From a bacterium (GTDB taxonomy: Bacteria; UBP7; UBA6624), in the NCBI GenBank assembly GCA_002716355.1, contig PBAU01000003.1, forward strand, positions 90,001 to 122,000: a stretch of 32,000 nucleotides of DNA. Reading direction: 5' to 3'. Every line of letters begins with the position of its first letter. Positions within the stretch are counted from its first letter, which is position 1. A model generated the notes under the pieces. It ran no database searches, was not told the DNA's origin, and saw nothing but the letters and a program-made list of their open reading frames with translations. Positions 3,802 through 32,000 of this stretch are shown piece by piece. The position numbers and the translations under genes are program-made.

Positions 3802-3850
3802 AAAACGCTAAAATAACAGAGTTTAGAGTCAAAGGGAAAATAGTTTAATT

Positions 3851-4087
3851 ATGGTGGTTGTTGTCGGATTTATACAATTTTACAAATTGGTTTTATTTGC
3901 AAGGATTCTTTTGAGTTGGTTTAGTGTTGATTGGAGAAGTCAGTATTTTTTTTGGATTGCTGATGTAACTGAGCCAATTTTAAGATTTGTTAGGCCTATC
4001 TTCCCAAGAATGGGAGGTATAGACTTTTCCCCTATTATTGCTTTTTATTTATTGGATTTGATTACTGGGGTGTTGATGAGATTATGA
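3851..4087 (+). CDS. YggT family membrane protein
   Basis: 78 aa with two TM segments. ARILLSWF...[24 protein letters not shown] is typical of the YGGT repeat. Confidence 0.7.
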
Positions 4088-7017: not shown

Positions 7018-7044
7018 CAAAACTTATTTTAAAATATCCTCTTC

Positions 7045-8545: not shown

Positions 8546-8564
8546 CCTTAAAGCTGCTCTCAGT

Positions 8565-9128: not shown

Positions 9129-9136
9129 TGGCGAGG

Positions 9137-9184
9137 TTGAGGGAGAGTCAATGCCTGGGTGGGTTCATTGAAAAACTCCCTCAA
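9137..9184 (-). promoter_or_regulatory. Leader hairpin upstream of the LysM gene, pairing SD-like and anti-SD-like arms around a 6-codon mini-ORF
   Basis: In mRNA sense: TTGAGGGAG-N30-CTCCCTCAA, a perfect 9-bp inverted repeat. GAGGGAG sits 7 nt before ATG AAC CCA CCC AGG CAT TGA. The LysM ATG follows 10 nt after the 3' arm and has no SD of its own. Confidence 0.35.
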
Positions 9185-9249
9185 TTTTAGTTTAGGCATT
9201 TTTAGACTAAGCATATATTTTTTACAATAAGCTTTGGTTAGCTTTTTTG

Positions 9250-10383
9250 TTATTTCTTGAATATTTTTTCAAAATTAAGATCCGGATCAGTAAACTTTCC
9301 TTTTTCTTGTATCACTTCATCATCAAGAAGTATCTTTCCTTCCTCTCTAAGATCAAGAATCATGTCCCAATGAAGTGCACTATTATTTTTTGAGCCACTT
9401 TCAGGATAGCCTTTTCCTAAAGCCATATGGAAAGTTCCACCAATCTTTTCATCAAAAAGTATATTTTTTATATGCCTGTCAATAGAGTAATTGGTTCCAA
9501 TTGCAACCTCTCCTGGAACTTTTGCCCCTTTGTCTAAGTTTATAAGCGAGAGAAGATGCTCTTCCCCAATTTTAGCTGAAGCATCAGCCACTTCGCCATT
9601 TTTAAAAATCAGATTAATATCTTGAACTAAAACACCTTGGTAAACAGTTGGCCATCTGTACCTTACCCTACCCTCTACAGAGCCTTCCACGGGCGCTGTA
9701 AAAACTTCTCCATCTGGAAAGTTTAGCTTTCCAGAACATGGAATCCATTTTCTGCCCTCTATTTCCATTTTTAAATCAGTTTCTTTTGAGAGTACCCTTA
9801 ATCTTTTTCCTTTATTGAGGATTGAGGCAAGTTTATCTTGCTCCACTTCAAACTCTTTCCAAAAAACAGAAGGATCGTCAAGATGGAGATTTCCTGCCTT
9901 GTAGACAAAATTAAAAAAATCCTCATAGCTCATTTCAGCTTCTTTGGCAAACGCTTCAGTTGGCCATAGCGTCCCAACCCAGTGAAAATCACCATCAGCA
10001 GATCTTTTCAAAGTTATATCTCTTATCTCTTCAGTTGATTTGTAGAACATTGATATTTTTTTTGTATCAACTTTGGACAAAAGCCTAGTATCGCTAGTTG
10101 CATTTATGCCTATTCTTGCATCAAGTGTTTTTGCTTCCAGCAATGAGGTTTCATGAACATAGCTCAATTGTTTGTCGTTTGCGTTTCTGATAAAAACAGG
10201 AGTACATGAGTCTAAATGTATATTTGTTTTTGGGTGAGCTCCAGTTTTTAAAATTTCTTTTATTATCTCTTTCACCAATGGTTCTGCCAAAGGAGTTGTG
10301 TTTACTGCCACTCTCCAGCCTTCTTGAACATTTAATGAATAATTTACAAGAACTTTTGCTAGTTTTTTTGCTATATCTTTCAT
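9250..10383 (-). CDS. M29 family aminopeptidase (AmpS/PepS-like)
   Basis: Length and motifs fit thermophilic-metalloprotease M29: FPDGEVFTAP, GEVAIGTN, GGTFHMALG and HWDMI. Confidence 0.8.
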   Translation of the reverse strand: MKDIAKKLAKVLVNYSLNVQEGWRVAVNTTPLAEPLVKEIIKEILKTGAHPKTNIHLDSCTPVFIRNANDKQLSYVHETSLLEAKTLDARIGINATSDTRLLSKVDTKKISMFYKSTEEIRDITLKRSADGDFHWVGTLWPTEAFAKEAEMSYEDFFNFVYKAGNLHLDDPSVFWKEFEVEQDKLASILNKGKRLRVLSKETDLKMEIEGRKWIPCSGKLNFPDGEVFTAPVEGSVEGRVRYRWPTVYQGVLVQDINLIFKNGEVADASAKIGEEHLLSLINLDKGAKVPGEVAIGTNYSIDRHIKNILFDEKIGGTFHMALGKGYPESGSKNNSALHWDMILDLREEGKILLDDEVIQEKGKFTDPDLNFEKIFKK

Positions 10384-10419
10384 AATGGTTTGATTTTATG
10401 ATAATAAAATAGCTTTATC

Positions 10420-10878
10420 TTGGAAAACAAAGCTAAAAAGCTCTCTTTTGCCGGCCTGAAAGTAATTGAAAGGGATGGGTCTTTAAAATTATTTCAACCT
10501 GATGAAAATTATTTTTTTTTCGATTTAGAAAATATAGAAGTTGAAACATGGGAAAAAAGAGGCAAAAGGGGTGCAAGGCTTTCTAATGGATATCAAGTTT
10601 TAGAAGGTTGGATCCTGTTTCCTCCAGGAGGTGTAAATTCAAGTAATGATATACCTGAAGGAATGCCAAAACTTGTATCACTGCGAGATTTAAACTTGAT
10701 GAGTAATAATTTTGAAAAAGAACTTTTGACAGAGCCAAAAAATCAAAGTTTGATAAATGCAATTTATCTTACTTCAAAATCAATTGTTGAAGGAGCCAAG
10801 AAGGCAGGCCTCAATATGACTCCAAAAATAGAGTCAATTTTGAAATTTATGAAAATCTATGTAGTTGATCTTGTTTGA
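10420..10878 (+). CDS. Hypothetical protein
   Basis: 152-codon ORF with a TTG start. No recognisable motif. Confidence 0.45.
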   Translation: MENKAKKLSFAGLKVIERDGSLKLFQPDENYFFFDLENIEVETWEKRGKRGARLSNGYQVLEGWILFPPGGVNSSNDIPEGMPKLVSLRDLNLMSNNFEKELLTEPKNQSLINAIYLTSKSIVEGAKKAGLNMTPKIESILKFMKIYVVDLV

Positions 10879-10935
10879 GTCATCTTAAGTGTAAATTTTA
10901 TTTTTGACCATTATTCAGAATAAAATGAATTGATA

Positions 10936-11619
10936 ATGCGTATAAAGTGCTTGATTATTGACCTTGACGACACTCTTTGTAACACTTTTTCAGATCTAGT
11001 CTTTCTTGCTCATCGGGATGCGTCTAAAGCAATGGTTGAAGCAGGTCTTGACATGCCTGTTGATGAAGTTTTTAAAAAAAGGATAAAAATATTAGAGCAA
11101 ACAATAGCTAATAATTTTTCAAAAACATTTGAAGAAATGCTTATTGAGGGCTTTTGCTGTTCTCAAAAAATTATTAATGCTGGTTTTGATGCATACTATA
11201 GTCGTGACATAGGTAAATTAACTCTTTTTCCACTTGCTCAAGACTTTTTAAATTTATGTTCTTTTTTAAAAATTGCACTTGTTACAAAAGGGAACAAATC
11301 AACTCAACTTCAAAAAATAAATAAATTAAACATTAAAAAACATTTTGATCATGTTGCAATTGTTGAAATATCAAATTCAAAAGAAGCTGAATTTAAAAGC
11401 ATTATGGAGAGATGGAACCTTCAGCCTCAAGAAATATTTGTAATTGGAGACAGGCCTGATGCAGATATTTATATTGGAAATAAATTAAAAATGAATACTG
11501 TTAGGTTTAAGTCTGAACATTATGCGAATATGAAACCAAGGAACAAGCTTGAAGTTAGCGATTACGAAGTAAAAAGTTACAAAGAGCTTATTGGCCTATT
11601 TGACAAAAACTTCATTTGA
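10936..11619 (+). CDS. HAD superfamily hydrolase
   Basis: HAD motif I LIIDLDDTL, motif II ALVTKG, and motif IV VIGDRPDADI. ATG at 10936; the track TTG is at 10930. Confidence 0.8.
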   Translation: MRIKCLIIDLDDTLCNTFSDLVFLAHRDASKAMVEAGLDMPVDEVFKKRIKILEQTIANNFSKTFEEMLIEGFCCSQKIINAGFDAYYSRDIGKLTLFPLAQDFLNLCSFLKIALVTKGNKSTQLQKINKLNIKKHFDHVAIVEISNSKEAEFKSIMERWNLQPQEIFVIGDRPDADIYIGNKLKMNTVRFKSEHYANMKPRNKLEVSDYEVKSYKELIGLFDKNFI

Positions 11620-13974: not shown

Positions 13975-14802
13975 ATGACAGGATATCCATTAAGTTCATA
14001 CAAGGGTGAAAAAGTTGATGTTTCAGTAGGAAATGTATCTTTTTCAAAAGATTCTTTTACTGTTGTTGCTGGCCCTTGTTCTGTTGAAACTGAAGAGCAG
14101 ATATTAAAAACAGCTGAAACTGTTTCAATGCTTGGAGCCTCTATTTTAAGAGGTGGCACCTACAAGTATAGAAAAAGTCCTTATACATTTTCAGGTTTGG
14201 GAGACAAGGGTGTTGAATATTTAAAAAAAGCTTCAATAAAAGCTTCTTTGCCAACTGTCACAGAGGTCATGTCGATTGATAAAGTTTCTTATTTGTCAAA
14301 AAATGTAGACATGTTGCAAATTGGTAGCAGAAACATGCATAATACACCACTTTTAAAAGAAATTGGAAAGACAAAGGTGCCAGTAATTTTAAAACGTGGA
14401 TATATGGCGACTATAGAAGAAACCCTTCTTGCAGCAGAACACATCGCAAAAGAAGGCAATCAGAATATAGTTTTATGTGAAAGAGGTATAAGGTGTTTTG
14501 ATGACTCTTTAAGGTTTACTTTGGATTTAGCTGGAGCCATCTTGCTTAAAGAAAATTCAAAATTCCCTGTAATAATAGATCCATCTCATGCTACAGGAAA
14601 ATCAAACCTTGTTAAGCCATTATGTTTAGCTGCATCTGCCGCTGGCCTTAATGGTGTAATGGTTGAAGTTCATCCTGAACCAAGAAAGGCCTTATCTGAC
14701 TCTGAACAAAGCTTAACATTTGACGAGTTTGCTGATTTGATGGATTCTTTGTCCATTTTTACAAAAAATAAAAATAAAATAACTAGAAGTGTCGGGGACT
14801 AG
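13975..14802 (+). CDS. aroF: 3-deoxy-7-phosphoheptulonate (DAHP) synthase, class I-beta
   Basis: VVAGPCSVETEEQ, LRGGTYKYRKSPYTFSGLG, QIGSRNM, ILKRG, IIDPSHATG. The last 10 nt overlap tRNA-Pro. Confidence 0.9.
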   Translation: MTGYPLSSYKGEKVDVSVGNVSFSKDSFTVVAGPCSVETEEQILKTAETVSMLGASILRGGTYKYRKSPYTFSGLGDKGVEYLKKASIKASLPTVTEVMSIDKVSYLSKNVDMLQIGSRNMHNTPLLKEIGKTKVPVILKRGYMATIEETLLAAEHIAKEGNQNIVLCERGIRCFDDSLRFTLDLAGAILLKENSKFPVIIDPSHATGKSNLVKPLCLAASAAGLNGVMVEVHPEPRKALSDSEQSLTFDEFADLMDSLSIFTKNKNKITRSVGD

Positions 14803-14869
14803 CGCAGCCTGGTAGCGCGACTGTTTTGGGAACAGTAGGTCGTGGGTTCAAATCCCGCGTCCCCGACCA
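14793..14869 (+). tRNA. tRNA-Pro (anticodon UGG), CCA encoded
   Basis: Hand-folded 77-nt cloverleaf: CGGGGAC/GTCCCCG acceptor, GCGC D-stem, ACTGT-TTTGGGA-ACAGT anticodon arm, GTGGG-TTCAAAT-CCCGC T-arm, then ACCA. Confidence 0.9.
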
Positions 14870-19530: not shown

Positions 19531-21513
19531 TTAAATCCCGTTTTTTTTAAGCTCTTTTTTGAAAAGCTCAAATGCTTGATTTATTTCAGAATCTTTATAT
19601 GATTTTTTACCATCTCCAATAACAAGCCTCCAGGTTAGATTCCAATTTTCCTTTTTTTTGTAAACATCAAATAGGTAAATTTCATGAATCAAATCTAGTT
19701 TTATTTTTGCAATAACTGAGGTTACTTTCTTGACTTCATCTGAACTTTTTGTATTAACTGTTAAATCTCTGTGTGAAAATTTATGACTTGGTAGCTCTTT
19801 TGCTTTTTGTTTTGGCATCGGCCATAAAATTTTTAATTCAAGCTCGCAAGACCACACTAGCTCCTTTTTGCTCCCTATCTCTATTTCAATAGCTCCTAAC
19901 AGGCCTTGAAACACTTTCGCTTCTATCTTTAATGCCGAAGAGTCTAGAAAGTAATTGTTTTTTACGTCAAAATAAAAGACTTCTGAGTTCCATTTTTGAG
20001 CAATACTTTCAAGTATCGTTTTGATGAGTCTTGATCCGCCATCTTCCTCAGGGATGAGAAGGCCTAAATGTAAGCTTTCTTCATTTTCTTTAAAAACTTT
20101 TCCAACCTCAAAACTCCAAGTAGACTGAAAATCTTTTTTTCTTGAATCTTCATGGCCCTTCAGCAAGCATGCTGATATGGAATTCCTAAGAAAAGCTTTT
20201 TCTTTTGAACGAGGGTTTAATAATTTTACTGGCTTATTTTCTAAAACTGATTTTCCAAATAATGTTAGACCTTCAGAGACAAGACTTGATCTTATTTCTT
20301 GCCTGCCCCCAAAGGACAAAAGAGTATCTATGAGAAATTCTTCCAGCTGAAAGATGTCATCCATTTTTGAAGTTTTAATTTGAATTTTTGGAAGTGTTTC
20401 TTTTAGGCCCGTGTAGCCATAAACCCTTATAACCTCTTCGATAAGGTCTTCAGGAATGGACAAGTCAGTTCTATGTGATGGAATCAGCCACTCACCCTTC
20501 CTTAAGCCCTTTTTTCTTTTTATCTTCCAGGAATCATTCCAATTCCCCTCTCTGTCCTTCGATATCTGCCTAATGCCTAAGCTTTCTAAAATTTGAACCA
20601 CTCTCTCTTCAGGTATATTCATCCCTAATCTTTTATTTATCTCAGAAGCCTTAATTGATATTGAATGATTTTCTAAAGTTTCTTCTACTGAGCTTGCAGA
20701 ATAAACTTGATTTGTCCAACCCAAATTATCAAGCCACCATAAATACCTTTTTGCACCTAAAAGAAAGCCTTTTGGATCAACTATTCTTTGAAATCTGTAA
20801 GATGAATCTGTTGAAAGGTTTAACCTGTTTGCGCTTTGTCTGGTTGATGAATTTTTAAAACAGGCAGCTTCTAGCAAAAATTCAGAATCCGAGACATCAG
20901 AAGAACCTTTTTTTGATCCAATTATTCCAGCTAAGGCCAAAGGCTCATTTGATTTATTTTGGACAAGAAGGTCTCCAGCTTCAATTTCATAAGATTTATC
21001 ATCAAGGGCATTAAATTTGATCTTTTTGTTGGCTAATGAAATTTTTACCCCATCATTCATCACATTGAATGGAAAAAGATGTAAAGGCTGACCTGTTTCA
21101 AAAAGTACATAATTTGTTAGGTCGACAAGTGGGTTTATGGGGTTTCTGCCCATAAGCTTAAGCATTTTTTCAATATGAGCATTTGCTTCAGGTTTAATTT
21201 TCAAATGTACGCCTAAATAAGACTGGCAATTTTTACTTTCTATTTTTATTGGGTATTTGTTGTCTATTGGGAAATCTTTCAATTCCAATTTTTTTATTTC
21301 TAGGTTTTTTGCAGTTGCAAATTCTCTTGCCAAACCATAGATTGAAAGGACATCAGTTCTGTTGCTAGGTGTGCTTAAATCTAAAACTTTCTCGCCTTCA
21401 ACTTCAAGTATTTCTTCACATTCAAACCCTATTTCAGTGAATATGTCAGCTATCTCTTGTGTTGAATAGCTGCATTGTATGAACTCCTTTAACCAGCAAA
21501 TCGGAAGGCGCAT
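19531..21513 (-). CDS. pheT: Phenylalanine--tRNA ligase beta subunit, short form lacking the N-terminal OB-fold tRNA-binding domain
   Basis: N-terminus MRLPICWLKEF...; B3/4 region NPLVDLTNYVLFETGQPLHLF; B5 region IPSHRTDLSIPEDLIEEVIRVYGY; C-terminal FDX-ACB-like domain. 660 aa. Confidence 0.85.
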   Translation of the reverse strand: MRLPICWLKEFIQCSYSTQEIADIFTEIGFECEEILEVEGEKVLDLSTPSNRTDVLSIYGLAREFATAKNLEIKKLELKDFPIDNKYPIKIESKNCQSYLGVHLKIKPEANAHIEKMLKLMGRNPINPLVDLTNYVLFETGQPLHLFPFNVMNDGVKISLANKKIKFNALDDKSYEIEAGDLLVQNKSNEPLALAGIIGSKKGSSDVSDSEFLLEAACFKNSSTRQSANRLNLSTDSSYRFQRIVDPKGFLLGAKRYLWWLDNLGWTNQVYSASSVEETLENHSISIKASEINKRLGMNIPEERVVQILESLGIRQISKDREGNWNDSWKIKRKKGLRKGEWLIPSHRTDLSIPEDLIEEVIRVYGYTGLKETLPKIQIKTSKMDDIFQLEEFLIDTLLSFGGRQEIRSSLVSEGLTLFGKSVLENKPVKLLNPRSKEKAFLRNSISACLLKGHEDSRKKDFQSTWSFEVGKVFKENEESLHLGLLIPEEDGGSRLIKTILESIAQKWNSEVFYFDVKNNYFLDSSALKIEAKVFQGLLGAIEIEIGSKKELVWSCELELKILWPMPKQKAKELPSHKFSHRDLTVNTKSSDEVKKVTSVIAKIKLDLIHEIYLFDVYKKKENWNLTWRLVIGDGKKSYKDSEINQAFELFKKELKKNGI

Positions 21514-21522: not shown

Positions 21523-21684
21523 CTATCTTCCAAGTGTTGCTGTGCTCTCGCCACCAGGCCTTTGTTCAAGATCTTGAAGATTCATAACTTGACCATTTTT
21601 TTCATATTTAAAATTTAACTGCGCTCTGTAAGAAAAAGCAGCTACTAAAAAAATTAAAACAAAAATATAAATTCTTTTCTTCAT
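21523..21684 (-). CDS. Small (53 aa) signal-anchored hypothetical protein, absent from the supplied ORF track
   Basis: Hand translation: MKKRIYIFVLIFLVAAFSYRAQLNFKYEKNGQVMNLQDLEQRPGGESTATLGR*. The SD AAGGTGA (21695-21689) is 4 nt from the ATG. The ORF fills the otherwise non-coding gap between the giant gene stop (21696) and the pheT start (21513). Confidence 0.5.
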   Translation of the reverse strand: MKKRIYIFVLIFLVAAFSYRAQLNFKYEKNGQVMNLQDLEQRPGGESTATLGR

Positions 21685-21695
21685 AATATCACCTT

Positions 21696-24600
21696 CTATT
21701 TCGTGTCAACAATAACCTCGTCAATTTGCCAACCTGCACCAACCACACCATCAGCATTTCCATCTCCATCTAAAGTTTGATCATCTTCCCCCCAGAAGAT
21801 AAAGCAAACGTATTTGCCTCTAAATGGACTAAGGTCAATTGTTCTTTTGTTTCCAATCGAACTTCCTCCTGCATTTGCAAAAGTATCACCAATGCTATTG
21901 CTGTAAAGCCATACGTTTCCACCCATGTAACAATCATCTATTTGTGTATCGCTCCACCTTACAACTATGCCAAATGTGCTTGGGCTGGGAGTTTCGTAAA
22001 GCTCGTTAAACAACAACCTTGTCCAGCCTCCCTCTGACACGTAATAACCATTAGCACCGGTTGAATCACCTGAAGGGTATGGGTAAGTTATCTGTAGAGC
22101 TGTGTCGTCATATGTCCATCCATCTAGGTAATTACCAGTATTAGTGTTGGTTCCAGTCATCCACATCTTGCAGTCAAGATTTCCATCGTCACCAGGTATA
22201 ACCCTCCACCATTGACTGTCATCTATCCAGTAGCCCATTTCAGTCCATGTATGTTGATCTGTACAGCTAGACCCATCACCAGGGAAAGGCTCGTAAAAGA
22301 GAGTCTTGGTGAAATCAGGTTGTTCTACAAGCTGTATATTGTCAAAAATAAATCCTGTATCAACATCTTCAGCATTAGTTCTTTGAGCTAACCCTATGCA
22401 AACATTTGAATTTCCTGCAAATTCGCTAATGTCAAGATAAAGGTATGTCCAGTCATTTGTATCAAGAGATGGATTCGTAACTCCAGTATCAACATTGACA
22501 AGCTCATTTACTATAGGGGTATACTGTCTCCATTCTCCAACAAAACAATTATCTGAATTACCTATATCTGTATTAACCCAAAGACGAATGTCTTCAAAAT
22601 CTTCAGCCGGCCTATTTAGCTGATGTGCCAAAACCAAAGCAGGATTGCTTGTTAATGAAAGATCTAAAGCTTTTTGGGTTATAAAAATAGGATCTTCATC
22701 GTTATCGTATTGTTGGGTATCTGGATTCCAGCCAGCTATCCAGGATTGGCCAGAATATGAAGCATTTGCTACCGAGCTTGACCAAACTTGGAAATAGGAA
22801 GTTTCAGTGTTTCCAAAAGAAGTTGAAACCCAATTTCCAGTACCAGCTACTTCGTCATAAAGAACATCTCCCTCAAAATTATCATACATATAAGTTGGAT
22901 ATGTCAGAGATGTTTCTGGCCCTGCTGCAGTTCCTGTTGACCCATCATCTGCAACAGCTTGGATACCATAGCAATATTTTGAATTTAAATTCAGGTTGCT
23001 TAAAACAGTTCCGCATTTTCCATCAGAGCAGCTAATGGTTTCTGATGTGCTGTCATAAGAGCCGCTATCAATTGCTGGACATTCTGATTTATTTCCATTT
23101 GAGGAATTGCTTAATGCATGAGTGTAAATCAAATATTCACATTCTCCATTTGAGGAATCTACAGGATTGCAGTGCGACAATTCATAATCCCAATAGTTAT
23201 CTTCCCACTCAAGCTCAACATCTGTTACAGCTAAAGAGGTAAAGAAAGATCCCTCCATGTTTGGGCCAGAAAGAAACATGCCAATTAAATCGGTAATAAT
23301 AACCCAGTCATAAGACGCAGGAGACGGATCAGTTAAACCGCCAGAATTTGTTGCCCTTACTCTGAAGTTGTTTTCTCCGTAAGGCAAATCGAAAGAGTAA
23401 TTTTTTGGACTTGTACATGACTCCCAGGATTCTTGATTCAATGAACATTCAAAAGTTGCCTCTGGATCATCTGAACTAAATGTGAAATCAGCTGTGTTGA
23501 AAAAGGTTTTTGAAGGTGGAGAGCTGTTTATAAAAGTATCTGGAGGCAAAATGCTTGAATCAACATTCCAATTCCAAACAGCAGGAGTTAAATCAACATT
23601 TCCAGCAGCGTCAATTGCCATAACTTCAAAAGTATGAGCTCCATCTAAGAATCCAGAATAATCTTGAGGGCTTATGCATGATTCCCATACGCCATTGTCA
23701 ATCTTGCATTCAAAAGTGCTGTTTGCTTCATTACTTTCAAAAATGAAAGTTGCTGAAGAGTCTGGTGTTGGATCAGGAGGACCATCTGTTATTGTTGTTT
23801 CTGGCTCAGTTTGGTCTATTCTCCAAGTCCATGAAGCTGGTGTTAAATCTTCATTGCCAGCTTCATCAATTGATTTAACCTCAAACGTATAGACATCTTC
23901 AAGAAGGTCTGAATAAGTTTTTGTCCCTCCATTGCATTCTTCCCATTCAATATCATCTCCTGAAACAGCGTCAAGCCTGCACATAAAGTAATCTGTCGGT
24001 TCATCATCACGATACACAAAAGAAGCTGAGGTTGAAGCTGTTGGGTCATTTGGTCCAGAATCAATATATGTTTCTGAAGGTGTTGTGTCTATATCCCAAG
24101 ACCATGAATCCCCTGTTGTATCAGTGTTTCCAGCTTGATCAGTAGCATAAACCTTGAAAACATGGCTCCCTTCCGCTAAATCACTAAAGGTGATTGATCC
24201 GGTGTTGCACTCAGTCAAATCACCACCATCCAACTCACATTGGAATGTAGCATTTGGATTTTCAGGACTTTCATATGTGAAAGTTGGAGCGGTGTTGTTT
24301 GAAGGGTTGGAAGGCCCTGTGAGAATCACTGTAGTTGGATTGATGGTGTCTATGCTCCATGTCCAAGCATCTGCAGCACCTAAGTTCCCTAAGTCGTCAG
24401 TTGATCGAACTTCAAACACATGATTTGTATTTTGCTCTAAGTTCAAATAAGTTTTTGGGCTTTCACAGGATTCCCATTCGCCATCATCCAATTTACACTC
24501 AGATGTTGAAGTTTCATCTGTAGACCATTCAAACACAGCATCTATGGAGTTGGTTGGATCCATAGGTGCGGAAGTTATTGATGTTACCGGTCCTGTTATA

Positions 24601-27600
24601 TCTATCAACCAGTTGTATTCAGAAGGAGTTGGATCAATGTTTCCAGCAAGGTCTTGTGCCCTTGTTGAAAATGTATGGCTTCCGTCTGTTAATTCGATGT
24701 AAGCTATTCCGCTTTGGCAAGCTTCCCATTCTCCATCATCCAACTTACATTCAAAAATTGCATCTGTGTCTGAGGGGCTTGAGAATGTAAATATCGCTTC
24801 AGTGGATGTTGTTGGGTCTGTTGGAGTTGAATCAATTTGGGTAGTTGGAGAAACTGTGTCTATTGTCCAGGTCCATACTGCTGGAGATACATCTTCATTT
24901 CCAAGAGAGTCAAAAGCTCTAACTTCAAATGTGAATTCACCGTCTGTTTGAGAGGGGTAAGCTTTTGGGCTAGTGCATGATTCCCAATCAGGAAGAACTG
25001 GTGATAACCTACATTCAAAAGTTGCTTCTGGGTCATCAGAAGACTCTTTGAATTCGAATGCTGGAATAGTTGCATTTGTAGGATCGTCAGGACCATTCGT
25101 TATTTCAGTTTGAGCACCTGTGGTGTCAATATTCCAAGTGTGTTCAGCGTTTGCACCTTGCACTTCAATGTTTCCTGCAAGATCCACACTCCAAGCCTTA
25201 AATACCCACTGCCCTTCAGCCAATGAAGAGTAATCTGCAGAATAAGATCCGTCTCCTTGGTCTGTCATTTCATTTGCCTGGCATGTTCCATCATTTGAAA
25301 TGCAATAAAAAACTGAAGTTAAGCCAGGAAGTGTTTCCCATGGTTGATCCTGAACACTGACTTCAAAAGTCCCGTCTGTTTCATTAGACGGGTCAGAAGG
25401 TGAACTTGTTATTGTGGTTACAGGAGCAGCTCTGTCTACATTTGTTGTGCTTTCTGCTGGCGTTGCATCAATGTTGTTTGCTGCATCCCAAGCCCTAACC
25501 ATAAATGTATGTGTTCCTTCAGCTAGAAGCTCATATTCTTTTGGACTTGTGCAGAAATTCCATGAACTCGCTGATGAGAATTTGCATTGGAAGAAAGGAG
25601 CTTCTTCATCTGCAGAGAAATGCCAAGCTATGATGTCTTCATTTGTGTATATAGCAGGCTCTATGGTTATGTTTGTCTCAGGTGGAGTTTGGTCTATTGT
25701 CCATTCTCTTTCAGCAGGTGTCGGATCGGCTGTGCCTACATCATTTAAGGCCCGAACATAAAATGTCTTAATTCCTTCTGTCAGGTCAACATAAGCTTTT
25801 GAACCCGAACCATTTATGCCATTACAAGAAGTGTAAACAGTTTCATCAGGACTCAACATACATTCAAAAATACTATCTCCTTCAGGGTTTGTAAAGGTGA
25901 AGGTAGCATTATTTACATTTGTTATTCCGCTAGGGCCTGAAGTTATTGCTGTATCTGGTATTGAAAGGTCTATTGTCCAGGTGTAACTTGCAGGGCTGCT
26001 ATCAATGTTTCCTGCAACATCTTGTGACTTGACATAAAAAGTATGTTCTCCCCCAGACATGCCAGAATAAGTTTTTGGACTTGTGCATGATTCCTCCCAT
26101 TCACCGTCATCCAGCTTGCATTCGAAAATACTACCTGTCTCGTTTGAAGTAAATTCAAAAGTTGCCTCATCAGAACCGGACAAGGATGAAGGGCCTGAGT
26201 CAATTGTTGTATTTGGATCGGTGGTATCTATGGTGAATGAATATGAATCAGGATCACTTATATTTCCTGCAAGATCAGTTGCCCTTACCTCAAAAACATA
26301 TGCGCCTTCTTGATTCAAACCAGAATACTGCCAACCTGTTCCAGGACAAGATTCCCAATCTACATTAATGCCACCACTAAGCTTGCATTCAAACCACCCA
26401 GCAGGAAGTGTATCTTCATTGCTTGAGTAAGTGAATGCAACAGTTGTTTCGTTTGTTGGGTCGTTAGGACCAGAATCCACAGAGACTTCTGGCTTAACAG
26501 TATCAACTGTCCAGCTTAAAGTTTTTTCAACATCTGCAATTTCAGCTATCTCAATATGATGAGCTTTAACTATTAAATTCTGAGAACCTTCAGGCAGGCC
26601 AGAAGCAAGCCAATAATGTCCATCAGTATCTTTGTCATTGCAGTCAAACCAACTTGAATTGTTCAGATTGCACTCAAAAGAAACCTTTTCTTCAGGGTGA
26701 TTCATTTCTTCAAAATATATCTTCAAGCCTGTAACTTCATTTGAGAAATCTCCTTCTTCAATATCACTAGGAGGGTTTGCCTTAAAGCGAAGCTCTAAAG
26801 GTTGATGCTCTATAACAGCAAAATAATCGCGTTCATCAGCATCATCACCATCTATCGTTTCATTCCCAAGAGAATCAACCACCTTGTATTGAATGAAATA
26901 TTCGTCAAGGCTTGATTCAAGAACCGGCAAGTTAGTATAAACCGCATTGTAAAACTGTCCACCATCAGATGCTAGCTGCCATGAGCCCTCAAAAGATACA
27001 ACTGAACCATCTTCTGCTCTGAATATGAACATTTGATAGTAAGCCGTATCAATATCATTAGAGTCACCATCTTCAGAGTCATTTCCAAATTCAAAAGTAA
27101 TTTGATCTTCAAAAACGATTTCGGCACTATCTGGATCTCTTGTCTTGTGCGTTATGGAAGGGCCTGTTATATCAATTGTCCATTCATGAGATTTGGATGC
27201 AGAGTTCTCCAAGTCATCCAAGCTATCAACCCTAAAGTCATGTTCACCTTCTGTTAGAGCTGTAGGTGAACCGTAAGAAAATGGACTAACACACGGATCT
27301 GTTGTAACTCCATCTAGTACACAAGATGCACTAACTCCATCATGGGTAAAAGAAATTTGACCACTTGTAGCATTTGTTGGGTCATTGGGAACTGTCTCTA
27401 GGTTTATTGTTGGCCCAGTTGTATCAACCGTCCATGTGAAAGAGGCAGGAGTCTTGTCTTCTTTTTGGTTGTCGTCAAGAAGGTAAGCTTTAACCTGGAA
27501 AGTGTACTGGGCATCTTCAAGGTTTGGGTAAGTCTTGGTTCCGCCTGGGCAACCTTGCCACCCTGCTCCATTGAGGCTACATTGGAAACCAACTGCTTCA

Positions 27601-27788
27601 GTTGATGATGTGCTGAAGCTGAATGTCGCTGTTTTTTGATTAGTTACACCTTCAGAACTAATGCCCATTGAGTTGTCGTCAATTGATGTATTTGGAGCAG
27701 ATGGCCCTGTATCACCCCCTCCTCCACCGCCACCACAAGCGACAAAGATAAAAGCAAAAGCTATAAATATAAAATTAATTTTTTTCAT
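21696..27788 (-). CDS. Giant (2030 aa) surface lipoprotein: ~16 tandem two-Cys Ig-like modules, a Cys-rich FN3-like segment, and two MAM-like/choice-of-anchor-J-like jelly-roll domains
   Basis: SPII signal MKKINFIFIAFAFIFVAC|GGGGGGGD. AGGTG lies 6 nt upstream of the ATG at 27788, and the track's GTG at 27797 is inside that SD. Repeats are described in the repeat feature. The C-terminus has DNFEGD...GFIFDNIQLVE and ...GAGWQIDEVIVD. Confidence 0.9.
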   Translation of the reverse strand: MKKINFIFIAFAFIFVACGGGGGGGDTGPSAPNTSIDDNSMGISSEGVTNQKTATFSFSTSSTEAVGFQCSLNGAGWQGCPGGTKTYPNLEDAQYTFQVKAYLLDDNQKEDKTPASFTWTVDTTGPTINLETVPNDPTNATSGQISFTHDGVSASCVLDGVTTDPCVSPFSYGSPTALTEGEHDFRVDSLDDLENSASKSHEWTIDITGPSITHKTRDPDSAEIVFEDQITFEFGNDSEDGDSNDIDTAYYQMFIFRAEDGSVVSFEGSWQLASDGGQFYNAVYTNLPVLESSLDEYFIQYKVVDSLGNETIDGDDADERDYFAVIEHQPLELRFKANPPSDIEEGDFSNEVTGLKIYFEEMNHPEEKVSFECNLNNSSWFDCNDKDTDGHYWLASGLPEGSQNLIVKAHHIEIAEIADVEKTLSWTVDTVKPEVSVDSGPNDPTNETTVAFTYSSNEDTLPAGWFECKLSGGINVDWESCPGTGWQYSGLNQEGAYVFEVRATDLAGNISDPDSYSFTIDTTDPNTTIDSGPSSLSGSDEATFEFTSNETGSIFECKLDDGEWEESCTSPKTYSGMSGGEHTFYVKSQDVAGNIDSSPASYTWTIDLSIPDTAITSGPSGITNVNNATFTFTNPEGDSIFECMLSPDETVYTSCNGINGSGSKAYVDLTEGIKTFYVRALNDVGTADPTPAEREWTIDQTPPETNITIEPAIYTNEDIIAWHFSADEEAPFFQCKFSSASSWNFCTSPKEYELLAEGTHTFMVRAWDAANNIDATPAESTTNVDRAAPVTTITSSPSDPSNETDGTFEVSVQDQPWETLPGLTSVFYCISNDGTCQANEMTDQGDGSYSADYSSLAEGQWVFKAWSVDLAGNIEVQGANAEHTWNIDTTGAQTEITNGPDDPTNATIPAFEFKESSDDPEATFECRLSPVLPDWESCTSPKAYPSQTDGEFTFEVRAFDSLGNEDVSPAVWTWTIDTVSPTTQIDSTPTDPTTSTEAIFTFSSPSDTDAIFECKLDDGEWEACQSGIAYIELTDGSHTFSTRAQDLAGNIDPTPSEYNWLIDITGPVTSITSAPMDPTNSIDAVFEWSTDETSTSECKLDDGEWESCESPKTYLNLEQNTNHVFEVRSTDDLGNLGAADAWTWSIDTINPTTVILTGPSNPSNNTAPTFTYESPENPNATFQCELDGGDLTECNTGSITFSDLAEGSHVFKVYATDQAGNTDTTGDSWSWDIDTTPSETYIDSGPNDPTASTSASFVYRDDEPTDYFMCRLDAVSGDDIEWEECNGGTKTYSDLLEDVYTFEVKSIDEAGNEDLTPASWTWRIDQTEPETTITDGPPDPTPDSSATFIFESNEANSTFECKIDNGVWESCISPQDYSGFLDGAHTFEVMAIDAAGNVDLTPAVWNWNVDSSILPPDTFINSSPPSKTFFNTADFTFSSDDPEATFECSLNQESWESCTSPKNYSFDLPYGENNFRVRATNSGGLTDPSPASYDWVIITDLIGMFLSGPNMEGSFFTSLAVTDVELEWEDNYWDYELSHCNPVDSSNGECEYLIYTHALSNSSNGNKSECPAIDSGSYDSTSETISCSDGKCGTVLSNLNLNSKYCYGIQAVADDGSTGTAAGPETSLTYPTYMYDNFEGDVLYDEVAGTGNWVSTSFGNTETSYFQVWSSSVANASYSGQSWIAGWNPDTQQYDNDEDPIFITQKALDLSLTSNPALVLAHQLNRPAEDFEDIRLWVNTDIGNSDNCFVGEWRQYTPIVNELVNVDTGVTNPSLDTNDWTYLYLDISEFAGNSNVCIGLAQRTNAEDVDTGFIFDNIQLVEQPDFTKTLFYEPFPGDGSSCTDQHTWTEMGYWIDDSQWWRVIPGDDGNLDCKMWMTGTNTNTGNYLDGWTYDDTALQITYPYPSGDSTGANGYYVSEGGWTRLLFNELYETPSPSTFGIVVRWSDTQIDDCYMGGNVWLYSNSIGDTFANAGGSSIGNKRTIDLSPFRGKYVCFIFWGEDDQTLDGDGNADGVVGAGWQIDEVIVDTK
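23295..27695 (-). repeat. Coding tandem array of ~16 divergent copies of an 83-105-aa module
   Basis: Approximate consensus: T-x-x-P-x-T-x-I-x-S-G-P-x-x-P-T-N-x-T-x-A-x-F-x-F-x-S...F-E-C-[KR]-L-D-x-x-x-W-E-x-C-T-S-P-K-x-Y-x-x-L-x-E-G-x-H-x-F-x-V-R-A-x-D-x-A-G-N-x-D-x-T-P-A-x-x-x-W-T-I-D. Copies are clearly diverged at the DNA level; a few spot comparisons looked around three-quarters identical over the best ~40 nt. Confidence 0.85.
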
Positions 27789-27826
27789 AAAGTGCACCTA
27801 AAACCTATAAAACCTAGAGTTATTGT

Positions 27827-27850
27827 ATACATTTATATATATAAATGTAT
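27827..27850. promoter_or_regulatory. Perfect 24-bp palindrome in the intergenic gap upstream of the 2030-aa lipoprotein gene (candidate operator and/or promoter -10 region)
   Basis: ATACATTTATAT|ATATAAATGTAT, checked base by base. It lies 39 nt upstream of the ATG at 27788. On the minus strand a TTGAAT spans the last nuclease codons, 17-19 nt upstream of the TATA-rich core. Confidence 0.4.
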
Positions 27851-27860
27851 TTAAAAAAAA

Positions 27861-28646
27861 TCATTCAAAAAGATAACCAAACCAATCATCTAGATTTATT
27901 GTTGATTCAATACTGTCTTCTATTGAGTCAGGCAGCATATGAAAGAAATCAATTCCAGTCTCTTGCTCTACTTCGTCTACTGATTTTGCAAAACTGGAAA
28001 GAGGTTGGTCTGAGCTTTCGTTAGCCAATATAAAACCTATTGCTTTGATTTCTGGTTGAGTGTAGTCTAAAACCACCTTGTAATAATGGGATGGAACAGA
28101 AACGTTGTTCCCCCCTATCGTGTCTAATATTGGATAACCATCGCCAAAAACAGGACCTGTAACTATATGAATCTTGTCATTTGTTTTTGCAGCATCCCTT
28201 ACATCCGCCTCAAGATCTTTCCAAATGTAGCGGTTAAATCCTGCAAGCTGAGGAGACATGTTTGAAAGAAAAAAGGATTCACTCATTGCTGTATGATCCC
28301 ATTCCATATCTCCTGCCGGAGCCAAATGGCCCCTATCGTACCCAGAGCCACTATAGTCACTCAATGATGCTGAACCATTTTCAACTGCTGGATCTTCCCT
28401 ATAGTCATCCGTTCTTTCCATATCGGAAGATGCCTGTTCAGAGGTTAATGTGTAAGCAACCCATAATGCTTGTTCATGCTCTTCACTATAGCTTAACGTG
28501 TAAGCTGTATGTGATATTATCTCTTCTTCTTCCGAGTAGTATGGGAGGCTGGCTTCCTCATCGCTTAATGGAACATACAAAACATTATCTGAGTCGCATG
28601 AAATAAAAAAAGCAAACAAGGTTAACAGCCTGATTAATTTAAACAT
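27861..28646 (-). CDS. DNA/RNA non-specific endonuclease (beta-beta-alpha-Me, Serratia NucA / EndA family), lipoprotein-type signal
   Basis: Catalytic motif GYDRGHLAPAGD and the downstream metal-ligand region FFLSNMSPQ. Signal MFKLIRLLTLFAFFISC|DSD. Its ATG overlaps the upstream TAA (TAATG). Confidence 0.88.
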   Translation of the reverse strand: MFKLIRLLTLFAFFISCDSDNVLYVPLSDEEASLPYYSEEEEIISHTAYTLSYSEEHEQALWVAYTLTSEQASSDMERTDDYREDPAVENGSASLSDYSGSGYDRGHLAPAGDMEWDHTAMSESFFLSNMSPQLAGFNRYIWKDLEADVRDAAKTNDKIHIVTGPVFGDGYPILDTIGGNNVSVPSHYYKVVLDYTQPEIKAIGFILANESSDQPLSSFAKSVDEVEQETGIDFFHMLPDSIEDSIESTINLDDWFGYLFE

Positions 28647-31600
28647 TATTGAATGACGGTTATGTAATTGCTTACAGTAGGTGTCGTTTCAAGTTGCACA
28701 ACACTTGGATTCTCGTTTGGCACAATGTCAGAATAGTTCTGAATGCTGATGTTGTAAGTTTTGCTTACAGAAGGATTGCTATCTCCTCCACCACCACCAC
28801 AAGAGGTTACAAAGAGAAGGATTGCAAAAACACCTGCGATTCTCCTTTTCTTAATTACCGCTAAACTCATGAATGCAAGAGCAAAAATCAATTCAATATC
28901 AAAAGGCATAGAAGCAAGAGATGAATCACCAGTAAAATCATATGTAATAAGATAGATTATTTCATTTACCCCATTGTCAATGCCTTGTTCATCGTCAAGT
29001 GTTATTGTTACAGTGCCATTATCTGCATTAAATTCTTCTTCGCCAAGATTGCTTTCGCTGTCAGGAATACCATCAGAGTTCATGTCAAGCCAAATTTCAA
29101 CTAAGCCTATATCGAGTTTGTCATTCCCTGTTCCAGATGCTCTTAAAGTTATTTCGTTTAATTGGTTTTGCCCAGTTATCGGACCATCAGTTTTAATGTA
29201 AGAGAACCTAAAGACAGGTTGCTGGATTCCTGAAGGCTCGAAATCTAAAGTAATAGCTGGAACAGGATTTTCATGCTTTATAGAAATGTCATATATAGCA
29301 TCAACTATAAAGTTTCTTGTTTCGCTACCACCAATATTCCCATTTATCAGAGCTCTTACTGTAAAGCTGTTGCTGCCATCTTCCATGGCTGATATTGTGT
29401 GTGAGCCTTCTCCATCAGAAAGAGTATCTCCATTGCATGAAACCCAATCTGTATTATTGCTGTCCTGGCATTCAAAGTTTGCATTTGTATTTGAACTATT
29501 AAAAGTAAACAATGTAGAAGAATTATGGATTTCCTCACCTTCTTGAGGTCCACTGATTATTGTTACATCAGCCGTTTCGGTTTCTATTGTCCATGTATAT
29601 GAGTCAGCAGATTCATCCTGGTTGCCAGCAAGATCAGTTGCCCTCACCTCAAAAGTGTGGGTTCCTACAGTAAGGTCTGCATAAGTTTCAGGACTTGTAC
29701 AAGACTCCCAGCTAAGCTCATCCCTTCTGCATTCAAATGTGCTATTTGGCTCACTGCTTTCAAAATGGAAAGTTGCAGTAATATCTGTTGTTGGATTGCC
29801 CGGTTTTGGATCATTGATTGTTGTTTCAGGTCTAACTGTATCAACAGTCCAATCATGGGCTGCAGGGCTTTGATCAGTGTTTCCGGCTTCATCTGTTGCC
29901 CTGACCTTGAAGATGTGCCAACCCTCGGAAAGGTTGTTTATCTCATAAGGGCTTGTGCACGAAAACCAGTGACCATCAGCTGTTTTCTCACATTCGAATG
30001 TGCTGTTTGGCTCACTGCTCTCGAAATCAAACACTATCGATTGGCTATTTGTGAGATCGGGAGGGTCATTCGTTATTGTTGTTTCAGGGCTATCTGTGTC
30101 TATTGTCCAATTCCATTCAGCAGGGGTGCTATCTTCGTTACCTGCCTCATCGATTGCCTTTACAAGGAAGTTATGTAGACCTTCAGCTAAACCAGAAAAT
30201 AATGAGCCTGAGGTACAAGGTATCCAATTACCCTGATCAAGACTGCATTTGAAAGTAGCATTTGAATCGTTGGATTCAAAAACGAATGTTGCTGAAGTTT
30301 CATTTGTTGGATTGTCTGGTCCTGAGATGATTGTAGTGTTTGGCCCTGTTTGATCTATATTCCAGGACCAAGATGGATCATCACTTATGTTTCCAGCTTG
30401 ATCAGTTGCCTGAACCTTGAAAACATGAGAACCATCTGGAAGATTGCTGTATACTTTGGGGCTTGTACATGATTCCCATTGATTGTCATCTAATTTGCAT
30501 TCGAAGCTGACAGATTCATTGCTTTCAAATTCAAATGTTGCTTCAGCTGAATTTGAAGGATCTGAAGGGCCATTTGTTATGTCAACTGTTGGAGCCACAG
30601 TATCAACGGTTATATTTCTTAATTCAGCTAGTCCAACATTTCCAGCTTCGTCGATTGCTCTTACCTCAAAAACATGGGCGCCTTCGCTAAGTTCTACGTA
30701 AGTTTGTGGACTTGTGCACGTTTCCCATCCTGAAGAATCCATATTGCATTCAGTCGTTGAAGGCTCATCAGCTGAAAATTCATATGTCACTGTACTGCTT
30801 GCCCAATAACCTTCTGGCCCAGAGTCTATTGTTGTTACAGGAAGGGTAAGGTCAATAGTGATTGTTTTTGAACTGCTTTCCGAAATGTTTCCTGCAGGAT
30901 CTATTGTCCTGAAATGGAATGTATGGCTTTCTTCAGCAAGTCCTGAATATTCTTTAGGGCTTGTGCAAGCGCTCCAAGGTTCAAGTTCTTTACTGCATTC
31001 ATATGAAGAATCTTCCTCATTGCTTGAAAAGCTGTATGAAACTGTTGATACGTTTATTTTTCCCTCAGGTCCACTAACTGAAACAACAGGTTGAGTAAGG
31101 TCAATTTCCCAATTGTGGGTATCACTCCCTGTGTTTCCAGATTCATCTTCTGCGACAACAACAAAAGAATAATTATCCTCACCAAGAGAATTGTAAGTAT
31201 ATGGAGAAGTGCAATTAATCGCACTGCTTCCATTCAAGCTGCAGGTAAATGTTGCCATTGGATCATCTGACTCAAATTCAAAAATGGCATTAGTTTGATT
31301 TGTTGGATTATCTGGTCCTGAATTTATCGTGACGGAAGGAGCAAAGTCAATTGTCCATTCCCAAATTGCAGGCTCGCCAACATCGCCCTCTCCTGTAGCC
31401 TCAATTGCTCGTACTTCAAAAACATGCTGCCCTTCATCAAGACCTATGTACACTCTTGGGCTTGTGCAATTGCCTGCTTCCCAATTTTCACTATCTAGCT
31501 TGCATTCAAATATTACATTCGGTTCATCACTTGAGCTGAATGTAAAAGTTGCATCAGGGCTGGCGCTTGGGTCACTTGGACCAGAATCTATTGTTGTTAT

Positions 31601-32000
31601 TGGGGCTATGTCTATATTCCATTCAAACCATGGCGGAGTGGGATCTACATTGCCTGCTTGATCGATTGCTCTAACCTCAAAATTATGTGTTCCTTCGCTA
31701 AGGTTTGTATAAGTTTTTGGACTTGTGCATGTCTCCCATGGAGCATCATTGAAAGCGTTCCAATCAAGTCTGCATTCAAATGTTGTGGTGCTGTTTTCTC
31801 CTGAATTTGTATTTTCAAATTCAAAAGTGGCAGAATTTTCACTGGATGGGTTTGGCGGACCTGATATTATCACTGTATCTGGAGGATTTGAGTCCAACGT
31901 CCAAGTAATCGTCTCATCAACAAACTGTCCATTATCATGTGTTGCCCTTACGGTTAATGACTGCCCTCCATCAGCAAGCGCACCTGACTCCCAATAGCTT
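28646..32000 (-). CDS. Giant surface protein, 5'-truncated by the window edge (1117 codons visible): at least 10 complete two-Cys Ig-like modules, a unique C-terminal domain, and a hydrophobic/KKRR/lipobox tail
   Basis: The frame stays open upstream of the track's TTG at 31897 (...SYWESGALADGGQSLTVRATHDNGQFVDETITWTLDSNPPDT...), which continues the repeat pattern. The true start is therefore beyond 32000. Confidence 0.9.
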   Translation of the reverse strand, partial: SYWESGALADGGQSLTVRATHDNGQFVDETITWTLDSNPPDTVIISGPPNPSSENSATFEFENTNSGENSTTTFECRLDWNAFNDAPWETCTSPKTYTNLSEGTHNFEVRAIDQAGNVDPTPPWFEWNIDIAPITTIDSGPSDPSASPDATFTFSSSDEPNVIFECKLDSENWEAGNCTSPRVYIGLDEGQHVFEVRAIEATGEGDVGEPAIWEWTIDFAPSVTINSGPDNPTNQTNAIFEFESDDPMATFTCSLNGSSAINCTSPYTYNSLGEDNYSFVVVAEDESGNTGSDTHNWEIDLTQPVVSVSGPEGKINVSTVSYSFSSNEEDSSYECSKELEPWSACTSPKEYSGLAEESHTFHFRTIDPAGNISESSSKTITIDLTLPVTTIDSGPEGYWASSTVTYEFSADEPSTTECNMDSSGWETCTSPQTYVELSEGAHVFEVRAIDEAGNVGLAELRNITVDTVAPTVDITNGPSDPSNSAEATFEFESNESVSFECKLDDNQWESCTSPKVYSNLPDGSHVFKVQATDQAGNISDDPSWSWNIDQTGPNTTIISGPDNPTNETSATFVFESNDSNATFKCSLDQGNWIPCTSGSLFSGLAEGLHNFLVKAIDEAGNEDSTPAEWNWTIDTDSPETTITNDPPDLTNSQSIVFDFESSEPNSTFECEKTADGHWFSCTSPYEINNLSEGWHIFKVRATDEAGNTDQSPAAHDWTVDTVRPETTINDPKPGNPTTDITATFHFESSEPNSTFECRRDELSWESCTSPETYADLTVGTHTFEVRATDLAGNQDESADSYTWTIETETADVTIISGPQEGEEIHNSSTLFTFNSSNTNANFECQDSNNTDWVSCNGDTLSDGEGSHTISAMEDGSNSFTVRALINGNIGGSETRNFIVDAIYDISIKHENPVPAITLDFEPSGIQQPVFRFSYIKTDGPITGQNQLNEITLRASGTGNDKLDIGLVEIWLDMNSDGIPDSESNLGEEEFNADNGTVTITLDDEQGIDNGVNEIIYLITYDFTGDSSLASMPFDIELIFALAFMSLAVIKKRRIAGVFAILLFVTSCGGGGGDSNPSVSKTYNISIQNYSDIVPNENPSVVQLETTPTVSNYITVIQ
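28799..28870 (-). other. In-frame internal lipoprotein signal peptide-like segment (MSLAVIKKRRIAGVFAILLFVTSC) near the 3' end of the giant ORF
   Basis: ATG at 28870-28868, KKRR at 28852-28841, lipobox VTSC with the Cys codon at 28801-28799, then GGGGGD. No stop codon separates it from the upstream giant ORF, and no SD is visible upstream of this ATG. Confidence 0.45.
29300..32000 (-). repeat. Coding tandem array: 10 complete copies and 1 partial copy of the two-Cys module found in the 2030-aa paralogue
   Basis: Module boundaries fall at W-x-I-D / x-x-P-x-T-x-I-x-S-G-P. Each copy has F-E-C-x(9-17)-C-T-S-P and G-x-H-x-F-x-V-R-A-x-D-x-A-G-N. Hand-counted module lengths range from 83 to 94 aa. 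Confidence 0.85.

Follow-up and report, generated by a model that had tools for sequence, protein, structure and literature searches.

A locus beside pheT in an uncultured marine bacterium encodes a stalked subtilisin-family protease, a predicted lipoprotein nuclease and a giant lipoprotein built from the same Ig-like modules

The window analysed here is a 32,000-nt stretch of contig PBAU01000003.1 (positions 90,001 to 122,000 of the forward strand; assembly GCA_002716355.1, GTDB lineage Bacteria; UBP7; UBA6624), and its right-hand part is occupied by a locus for three proteins that are predicted to be exported; window numbering is used below unless a related contig (L001, L003 and so on) is named. 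From position 21523 to the right edge, the long open reading frames (ORFs) all lie on the minus strand, and direct reading of each junction upholds the gene order listed in the initial annotation, which was made from the sequence of the window alone. In the direction of transcription, a giant gene that continues beyond the window edge (giant 1; 28646..32000, comprising the C-terminal 1117 codons plus the stop) is followed by genes for a nuclease of 261 residues (27861..28646) and a second giant protein of 2030 residues (giant 2; 21696..27788), then by a small ORF of 53 codons (21523..21684) and pheT (19531..21513). The junctions are likewise as they were first described: the TAA of giant 1 overlaps the ATG of the nuclease gene within a TAATG (28644..28648); the nuclease stop is separated from giant 2 by a 72-nt spacer, among the larger gaps of the window, in which a perfect 24-bp palindrome (ATACATTTATATATATAAATGTAT; 27827..27850) ends 38 nt ahead of the start codon of giant 2; an 11-nt spacer (AAGGTGATATT; 21685..21695) containing the Shine-Dalgarno sequence AAGGTGA lies between giant 2 and the small ORF; and 9 nt separate the latter from pheT.

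The ORF at the edge is open, as reported, with no stop up to base 31999. Its 1117 codons within the window are identical to the C-terminus of a 1636-residue ORF in GCA_002456105.1 (L001 5091-10001), and this rightward extension, which the initial annotation had called for, recovered the N-terminus of giant 1. The full-length protein has either 1636 residues (L001, the window allele) or 1807 residues (L003 3714-9137), the additional 171 residues of the latter comprising one further module and an exact second copy of the neighbouring module. Nearly all public contigs break inside the gene, probably owing to length polymorphism. The parts of giant 1 are, in order, a signal peptide, a propeptide-like stretch, an S8 domain, ~11 immunoglobulin (Ig)-like modules, a beta-rich domain and a C-terminal membrane hairpin; for the C-terminal domain there was no Pfam match, even at E<=10. 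The N-terminus (MNKLFNFLFIFLCLIGSKSTA), which lies outside the window, reads as a signal peptidase I (SPI)-like signal and not as a lipobox, because Leu occupies position -1 (..FIFLC). The S8 domain, also outside the window, matches Peptidase_S8 (PF00082), and its closest solved relative is the deep-sea deseasin MCP-01 (PDB code: 3vv3; E 4e-32). The Asp/His/Ser triad and the oxyanion Asn align with those of 3vv3 in the order of the family: the motifs HDQG, HGTGVGG, AAAGN and GTSCATP of giant 1 correspond, respectively, to IDTG, HGTHVSG, AAAGN and GTSMATP. Giant 1 is thus predicted to be a subtilisin-family protease with an intact catalytic triad, carried on a long stalk.

Towards the end of giant 1, an element made up of MPFDIE, a first hydrophobic helix, KKRR, a second hydrophobic helix with VTSC at its end, and GGGGG (28784..28909) is followed by a conserved stretch of ~50 residues. 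The lipobox-like site (LLFVTSC/GGGGG) lies 75 residues before the stop codon, and this end of the protein, with its tail down to 28649, is 50-83% identical in the related loci L010, L013 and L017, with the Cys and the five Gly residues invariant. In its residue pattern, the KKRR-helix-VTSC segment reads like an embedded lipoprotein signal peptide. A separate small lipoprotein produced from an internal start was also considered and is unsupported: the in-frame ATG within the tail has no Shine-Dalgarno sequence before it, and so a separate gene is unlikely. Three SPII-type (signal peptidase II) lipoboxes had been reported for the locus; those at the N-termini of giant 2 and the nuclease stand, whereas the third is this internal site near the C-terminus of giant 1. 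Similarly, the description of the two giants as tandem lipoproteins is retained for giant 2 but not for giant 1, which has an SPI-like signal at its N-terminus and an S8 protease domain.

Residues 40-240 of the nuclease match positions 15-222 of the 223 in the Endonuclease_NS profile (PF01223; E 5.6e-54; 183.6 bits against a cut-off of 23). The catalytic DRGH motif (YDRGHLAP) and the metal-binding Asn (FLSNMSPQ) can be read in the translation, and the solved relatives include EndoG, EXOG, Anabaena NucA and the Serratia nuclease, the aligned range being confirmed against the EndoG and NucA structures. The identification as a Serratia/EndA-type non-specific nuclease is, therefore, upheld by both the family match and the structural relatives. 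The signal appears, by reading, to end in a lipobox (MFKLIRLLTLFAFFISC; ..FAFFISC/DSD), such that the predicted product is a 261-residue non-specific DNA/RNA nuclease with a lipoprotein signal and intact motifs. The family is very common: 7854 proteins match at E<=1e-10, and many members at ~60% identity have additional helix-hairpin-helix domains. The nuclease sequence itself occurs in the metagenome-assembled genome GCA_002456105.1 and on several public contigs assembled from marine metagenomes, those of Tara Oceans and related ones.

The start codon of giant 2 (ATG at 27788) is preceded by AGGTG, and the gene callers agree with direct reading on a product of 2030 residues. Its N-terminus reads as a lipobox (MKKINFIFIAFAFIFVAC; ..FIFVAC/GGGG) and is followed by Gly7; the Cys-Gly5-Asp tether of this N-terminus recurs near the C-terminus of giant 1. 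Segmentation with a self-built hidden Markov model delineated 15 two-Cys Ig/PKD-like modules in the giant 2 stalk (residues 30-1498; 23295..27701), which also contains a non-module insert at approximately residues 207-337, and 11 in giant 1. When 24 modules of the window (~82-103 residues, from both giants) were aligned, both Cys residues were invariant in all 24, confirming that one two-cysteine module is common to the two proteins. Identities between modules are 27-55% overall and 33-55% between proteins, and the modules of the two giants are intermixed in the alignment; they have diverged, with no tandem repeat at the DNA level in the locus. In one relative (L008), the modules lack the Cys pair.

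The assignment of these repeats to the Ig-like class is also sustained, both by profiles and by modelling. Big_13 (PF19077) matches giants 1 and 2 with E values of 1.2e-37 and 3.6e-33, respectively, and the OmpL47-type domain (NF047446) matches the modules more strongly still (2.4e-43 and 2e-39). The two bit scores are 114.5 and 128.9 for Big_13, where the cut-off is 27, and 133.8 and 146.4 for NF047446, where it is 40. An AlphaFold2 (AF2) model of one module, computed from the 24-module alignment, has a predicted local distance difference test (pLDDT) score of 97.5 and seven strands; Foldseek relates it, with template modelling (TM) scores of 0.65-0.80, to the bacterial Ig-like (BIg) domains of SiiE, the Y_Y_Y domains of Bacteroides sensors and the PKD domains of collagenases and Vibrio proteases. 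As modelled, the modules adopt an Ig-like beta-sandwich fold.

Beyond the stalk, giant 2 terminates in a beta-rich, non-repetitive tip region of 532 residues (21699..23294), for which there was no Pfam match even at E<=10, whether the whole region or its halves were searched. One relative was found in a search of 5.8 billion proteins, and six matches among 1.84 billion cluster representatives. A profile search from the tip reaches three proteins (P0123, P0125 and P0126) that all match the InhA-like MAM family (PF20773), although only P0125 is clearly above the gathering score; P0126 exceeds it only when summed over the whole protein, and P0123 is below it. In hhalign, the tip family aligns with the MAM-like repeats of these distant matches (probability 96.2%, E 2.3e-9) over the middle domain only (~190 residues). 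An AF2 model of the whole tip, from a two-sequence alignment, is unusable (pLDDT 34). It is reasonable to regard the tip as containing at least one divergent MAM-like domain by remote homology, and to this extent the earlier guess of a MAM domain was sound, although formal membership of PF20773 was not obtained. A distant homologue of the tip (25% identity) also occurs in an unrelated context (L020 9467-14490), in a 634-residue lipoprotein whose gene is followed by an overlapping gene for a 1054-residue S8 lipoprotein with FG-GAP repeats. We have not used this pairing as a supporting link; it stands alone, and its S8 domain is only 23% identical to that of giant 1.

The palindrome in the 72-nt spacer has a counterpart, ATACTTTTAT-TAT-ATAAAAGTAT, which is located outside the window (L001 5059-5081; L003 3682-3704), ~27 nt upstream of the likely start of giant 1. 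A palindrome such as that in the spacer would not be expected by chance, even with three mismatches allowed. The motif shared by the two, ATACWTTTAT-N3/4-ATAAAWGTAT, occurs only before the two giant genes in the window and in L001, with up to three mismatches allowed, and likewise in the related loci, and the palindrome at 27827-27850 is conserved in L010, L013, L016 and L017. Each of the two includes -10-like elements of the TATAAA type, and the sister palindrome directly adjoins the 5' end of rnpB, the gene for a class A RNase P RNA, which is divergent from giant 1 and lies just past the right window edge (Rfam RF00010, 262 bits; L001 4732-5059, minus strand). They may be promoter elements, operators, or both. 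A role as an intrinsic terminator was rejected, the spacer palindrome being AT-only and followed by no T-run, and no minus-strand terminator was predicted between 19000 and 32000. Overall, common regulation of the two giant genes through these related palindromes is probable, to judge by the motif and its placement.

We favour a reading in which the locus supplies membrane-tethered exoenzymes, together with a capture protein, for the scavenging of polymers, and we put its probability at about 0.5. All three products would leave the cytoplasm via Sec. The nuclease and giant 2 would then be tethered by an N-terminal lipid, the latter through its poly-Gly linker, and the protease by its C-terminal hairpin. 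An Ig domain usually contributes ~4 nm in length; the disulfide-bonded stalks would, as rigid spacers, reach roughly 45 and 60 nm, and keep both the protease head and the MAM-like binding tip at a distance from the membrane, whereas the nuclease would stay close to it. Joint capture and cutting of proteins, DNA and RNA would release peptides and nucleotides at the cell, which would suit a small, streamlined, free-living ocean bacterium. The scavenging of nucleic acids, one of the roles proposed in the initial annotation, is thus still plausible. Deseasin-type secreted subtilases are known to recycle marine protein (PMC6606773), and extracellular nucleases enable marine bacteria to draw phosphorus, nitrogen and carbon from extracellular DNA (PMC8289736, PMC4714964). 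Several points weigh against this interpretation. No peptide or nucleoside transporter is adjacent to the locus; if the cell is diderm, the anchors might hold the proteins in the periplasm, barring some export route as yet unknown; homologues of the nuclease at 55-60% identity have unrelated neighbours; and synteny with the functionally unrelated pheT and rib genes is conserved to the same degree as that within the locus.

The last two of these points also speak for the main alternative, namely, that the three proteins form no functional unit but act independently, their genes having remained neighbours only through frozen gene order in a compact genome. We regard this as rather unlikely, though as the most serious of the alternatives. 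All relatives for which sufficient sequence is available retain the arrangement, at PheT identities of 67-86%, and a survey for the co-occurrence of giant, nuclease and giant, which the initial annotation had suggested, found them co-localized wherever a relative could be examined. The full set of giant 1, nuclease, giant 2, small ORF, pheT and rib genes is kept in L010-L012 (nuclease 88% identical) and in L017 (nuclease 88%, tip 72%); L013 (nuclease 82%) has giant 1, nuclease and giant 2; the 3' end of the nuclease gene, the palindrome, giant 2, pheT and rib genes are kept in L016 (PheT 67%, nuclease 73%); and giant 2, small ORF, pheT and rib genes in L008 and L019 (PheT 67%). The TAATG overlap is also present in L010 and L017, but is replaced by a 7-nt gap in L013. 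Since synteny with pheT and the ribDEBAH genes is equally well conserved, conserved adjacency is weak evidence for a functional unit; the pheT/rib adjacency is inherited synteny in a very compact genome and is uninformative about function.

The same applies to the spacing, which had been taken as a sign of coupling. Across the window (32 features), the gaps between genes have a median of 7 nt, and at 20 of the 31 junctions the gap is 15 nt or less, including those between unrelated pairs such as ferredoxin/nadK, pheT/ribD and biotin ligase/ribH. Gaps this short are the rule for the genome, and overlaps between unrelated genes occur all along the window, so that close packing here gives no basis for inferring functional coupling. 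The DAHP synthase ORF even overlaps the start of tRNA-Pro by 10 nt (window 13975-14869); together with the 7-nt median gap, this points to a very compact, streamlined genome. (The gene at 13975-14802 was also considered as KdsA, which would have been evidence for lipopolysaccharide; this was rejected, the gene being that for DAHP synthase.) Independence of the three genes is also consistent with the unrelated neighbours of distant nuclease homologues and with the sheer size of the nuclease family. Nevertheless, three observations speak against it: related palindromes precede both giant genes and are found nowhere else in ~50 kb, one module family and the Cys-Gly5 tether are common to both giants, and all three products appear, from their signals, to be exported.

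Composition could suggest instead that the locus was acquired horizontally, as an island that entered between pheS and pheT. The initial annotation had noted by eye that the locus is the richer in G+C, and this is indeed the case: its GC content is 40.6%, some 6 points above the 34.4% of the other coding sequence. However, the rise is concentrated at codon position 2 (GC 0.326 to 0.459), whereas the third position changes only from 0.264 to 0.287, and when the amino acids of the locus are encoded with housekeeping codon preferences, a GC content of 39.7% is predicted. Thr, Ser, Asp, Pro and Gly are abundant in the locus proteins, and Lys, Ile and Leu scarce; given the near-constant third position, it is this amino-acid composition that raises the GC, and once it is allowed for, GC and codon usage are native. 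Nor is there an integrase, tRNA or repeat bordering the locus.

The position of pheS leads to the same result. It is true that no pheS lies directly upstream of pheT, where it had been expected, but neither was it found elsewhere in the window or, as had been suggested, beyond giant 1, within the ~5 kb that could be searched there. It was located instead on a leftward contig, L026, which is 99.99% identical to window 1-11076 and extends past the left edge: pheS (TIGR00468, 320 bits against a cut-off of 237) is at L026 6596-7576, corresponding to window -3237..-2257, on the plus strand. It is thus ~22 kb from pheT on the opposite strand, the pheST operon arrangement being absent, and the relatives keep the synteny at 67-86% PheT identity; the proposal that the locus has taken the place of pheS is, therefore, abandoned, and we attach no significance to the pheS/pheT aspect. 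We give hardly any credence to the acquisition of an island. At the level of sequence comparison, these data show the cluster to be native, conserved and lineage-specific; the lineage is also isolated, since the identity of its SHMT falls from 80-92% within the clade to ~62% against mixed phyla. Genes resembling MlaE, MlaF and MlaD flank pheS, which would be a hint of a diderm envelope.

The tip of giant 2 brings in a further possibility, namely, that the locus encodes the attachment-and-attack apparatus of an epibiotic or predatory cell, in which the giant lipoprotein would bind a host or prey and the protease and nuclease would digest it. Tip divergence does not follow that of PheT: the window and L016 share 67% identity in PheT and 74% in the tip, whereas L016 and L019 share 79% in PheT and only 40% in the tip (compared regions: window 21699-23294, L016 4731-6314 and L019 713-2269). 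This suggests that the tip is decoupled from the PheT phylogeny, either because domains have been exchanged or because a binding part that is exposed evolves rapidly, and is what one would expect of a receptor-binding part under diversifying selection or exchange. The architecture is, moreover, adhesin-like, with structural matches to SiiE-type BIg domains, and module copy number differs between assemblies. Despite this, we consider an attack apparatus distinctly unlikely: steps of riboflavin, NAD, folate and aromatic-amino-acid biosynthesis are encoded in the window and its flanks, such that the genome is not obviously that of a dependent organism; the names of the source records place it in the 0.22-1.6 um size fraction; and there are no toxin/immunity or secretion-system genes nearby. 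Variable tips and copy numbers sit less comfortably with a structural role, in which the Ig-repeat proteins would form an envelope or surface-layer (S-layer)-like coat and the enzymes would be incidental. Long, disulfide-bearing Ig-like arrays with membrane anchors at one end would be apt for such a coat, but giant 1 bears an intact protease head, and there is no S-layer family match and no SLH or similar domain; we judge a coat to be very improbable. A role in defence was discarded: the sole PADLOC match was a generic subtilase one for giant 1, and there was none for giant 2, the small ORF or the nuclease.

The small ORF is of a different kind. Its 53-residue product starts with MKKRIYIFVLIFLVAAFSY, a signal or membrane anchor, but is not a lipoprotein, because it has no Cys; no family match was obtained in profile searches. 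It is conserved in 10 related loci as five sequence variants of 42-74% identity, in which the frame and the N-terminus (MKKRIxIFxLIxL..AFSY) are kept and the C-terminal half is variable, and its product is probably a small membrane or secreted protein, judging by this N-terminus. A pheM-like Phe leader peptide was considered and rejected, as there is no Phe run and the N-terminus is signal- or anchor-like; moreover, with only 9 nt before pheT, there is no room for an attenuator. Rfam found two tRNAs only in the window, and neither a riboswitch nor a leader close to pheT or the rib genes. The pheT gene (660 residues), which is a conserved neighbour outside the exported set, is followed by ribD-ribE-ribBA-ribH. 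Its B3_4, B5, core and FDX-ACB domains were found, and PheT matches TIGR00472 over positions 152-791 of 798 with 353 bits, below the cut-off of 403; it lacks the usual N-terminal ~150 residues, the tRNA-binding region. On the other side of the locus, beyond the start of giant 1, the divergently oriented rnpB is followed by genes for ThuA-GSDH and RNase H, and by cutA, ispF and ispD.

If scavenging by tethered enzymes is the correct interpretation, a small, streamlined, uncultured ocean bacterium invests ~4000 codons in exoenzymes that are tethered and not released, which would bear on models of polymer hydrolysis in seawater, where private uptake is set against public goods. The most specific form of the scheme would be one co-regulated surface-digestion module confined to a deep-branching marine lineage, with a dedicated regulator acting at the palindromes, a ~60-nm MAM-tipped protein that captures a particular polymer or particle and whose tip is exchanged between lineages, and a protease cut by Lgt/LspA; taken as a whole, we think this improbable. 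Were it so, Lgt/LspA cleavage at the embedded signal would yield both a hairpin-anchored protease and a ~50-residue lipopeptide from a single ORF; we know of no description of processing at an internal, C-terminal lipobox. The conserved lipoprotein-signal-like segment within the C-terminus of giant 1 and the divergence of the tip independently of housekeeping genes could be of wider interest, and the nuclease, the S8 head and the MAM-like tip are concrete targets for expression studies.

Among known systems, giant 1 most resembles the deseasin MCP-01-type S8 subtilases of marine Pseudoalteromonas, in which the S8 domain is likewise followed by Ig/PKD-like modules, and with which it shares a marine origin and, presumably, the degradation of protein polymers (PMC6606773). 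What relates it to the deseasins proper, which are collagenolytic and carry a collagen-binding PKD domain, is sequence similarity in the catalytic domain only. Deseasin has a single PKD domain, against 11-13 modules in giant 1, and deseasin-type subtilases are released, whereas giant 1 has at its end a membrane anchor of two helices, in which a lipobox-like site is embedded. The nuclease shares a full-length Pfam match, the DRGH and Asn motifs and export with the Serratia NucA, Anabaena NucA and mitochondrial EndoG group of beta-beta-alpha-metal nucleases, but the Serratia NucA-type enzymes are freely secreted, whereas that of the locus would be lipid-anchored through its lipobox. It is also without the helix-hairpin-helix DNA-binding domains of many of its closest metagenomic relatives, and no gene for a NuiA-type inhibitor was seen nearby.

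With SiiE and the LapA/MpIBP-type RTX adhesins, the giants have in common a long stalk of BIg-like domains and, at the distal end, domains that would bind ligands; SiiE is the top Foldseek match, and the NCBIfam model Ca_tandemer scores just above its cut-off. However, the polarity and anchoring of those giant Ig-repeat adhesins are the reverse of those of giant 2, with its N-terminal lipid anchor and C-terminal tip, and each module of the locus would carry a disulfide pair in place of the Ca2+ sites typical of SiiE/RTX-type repeats. There are no RTX- or haemolysin-type matches in either giant and no type I secretion signal, and the neighbours (pheT/rib, ThuA-GSDH, RNase H, cutA and ispDF) are not those of a type I secretion system. 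The repeat module itself scores far above the cut-off for the domain type named after Leptospira OmpL47 (134 and 146 bits, relative to 40); OmpL47 is displayed at the cell surface and binds components of the matrix (PMC2698987, PMC2935396). The giants are not OmpL47 orthologues, scoring 57.8 and 70.3 bits with NF047441 against a cut-off of 250, and both architecture and organism are quite different. The dentilisin of Treponema denticola, in which the protease PrtP acts with the lipoproteins PrcA and PrcB, offers a parallel in layout: an S8 gene stands beside lipoprotein genes, with presumed action at the surface, and the distant tip-domain homologue in L020 also lies beside an S8 lipoprotein. 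It differs in that giant 1 scores only 16.5 bits with the PrtP model (cut-off 300) and the locus has no PrcA or PrcB homologues; the S8 domains of L020 and giant 1, too, are far apart. The components of the locus are, then, of well-known kinds; what is new is their particular architecture, together with a few unexplained details.

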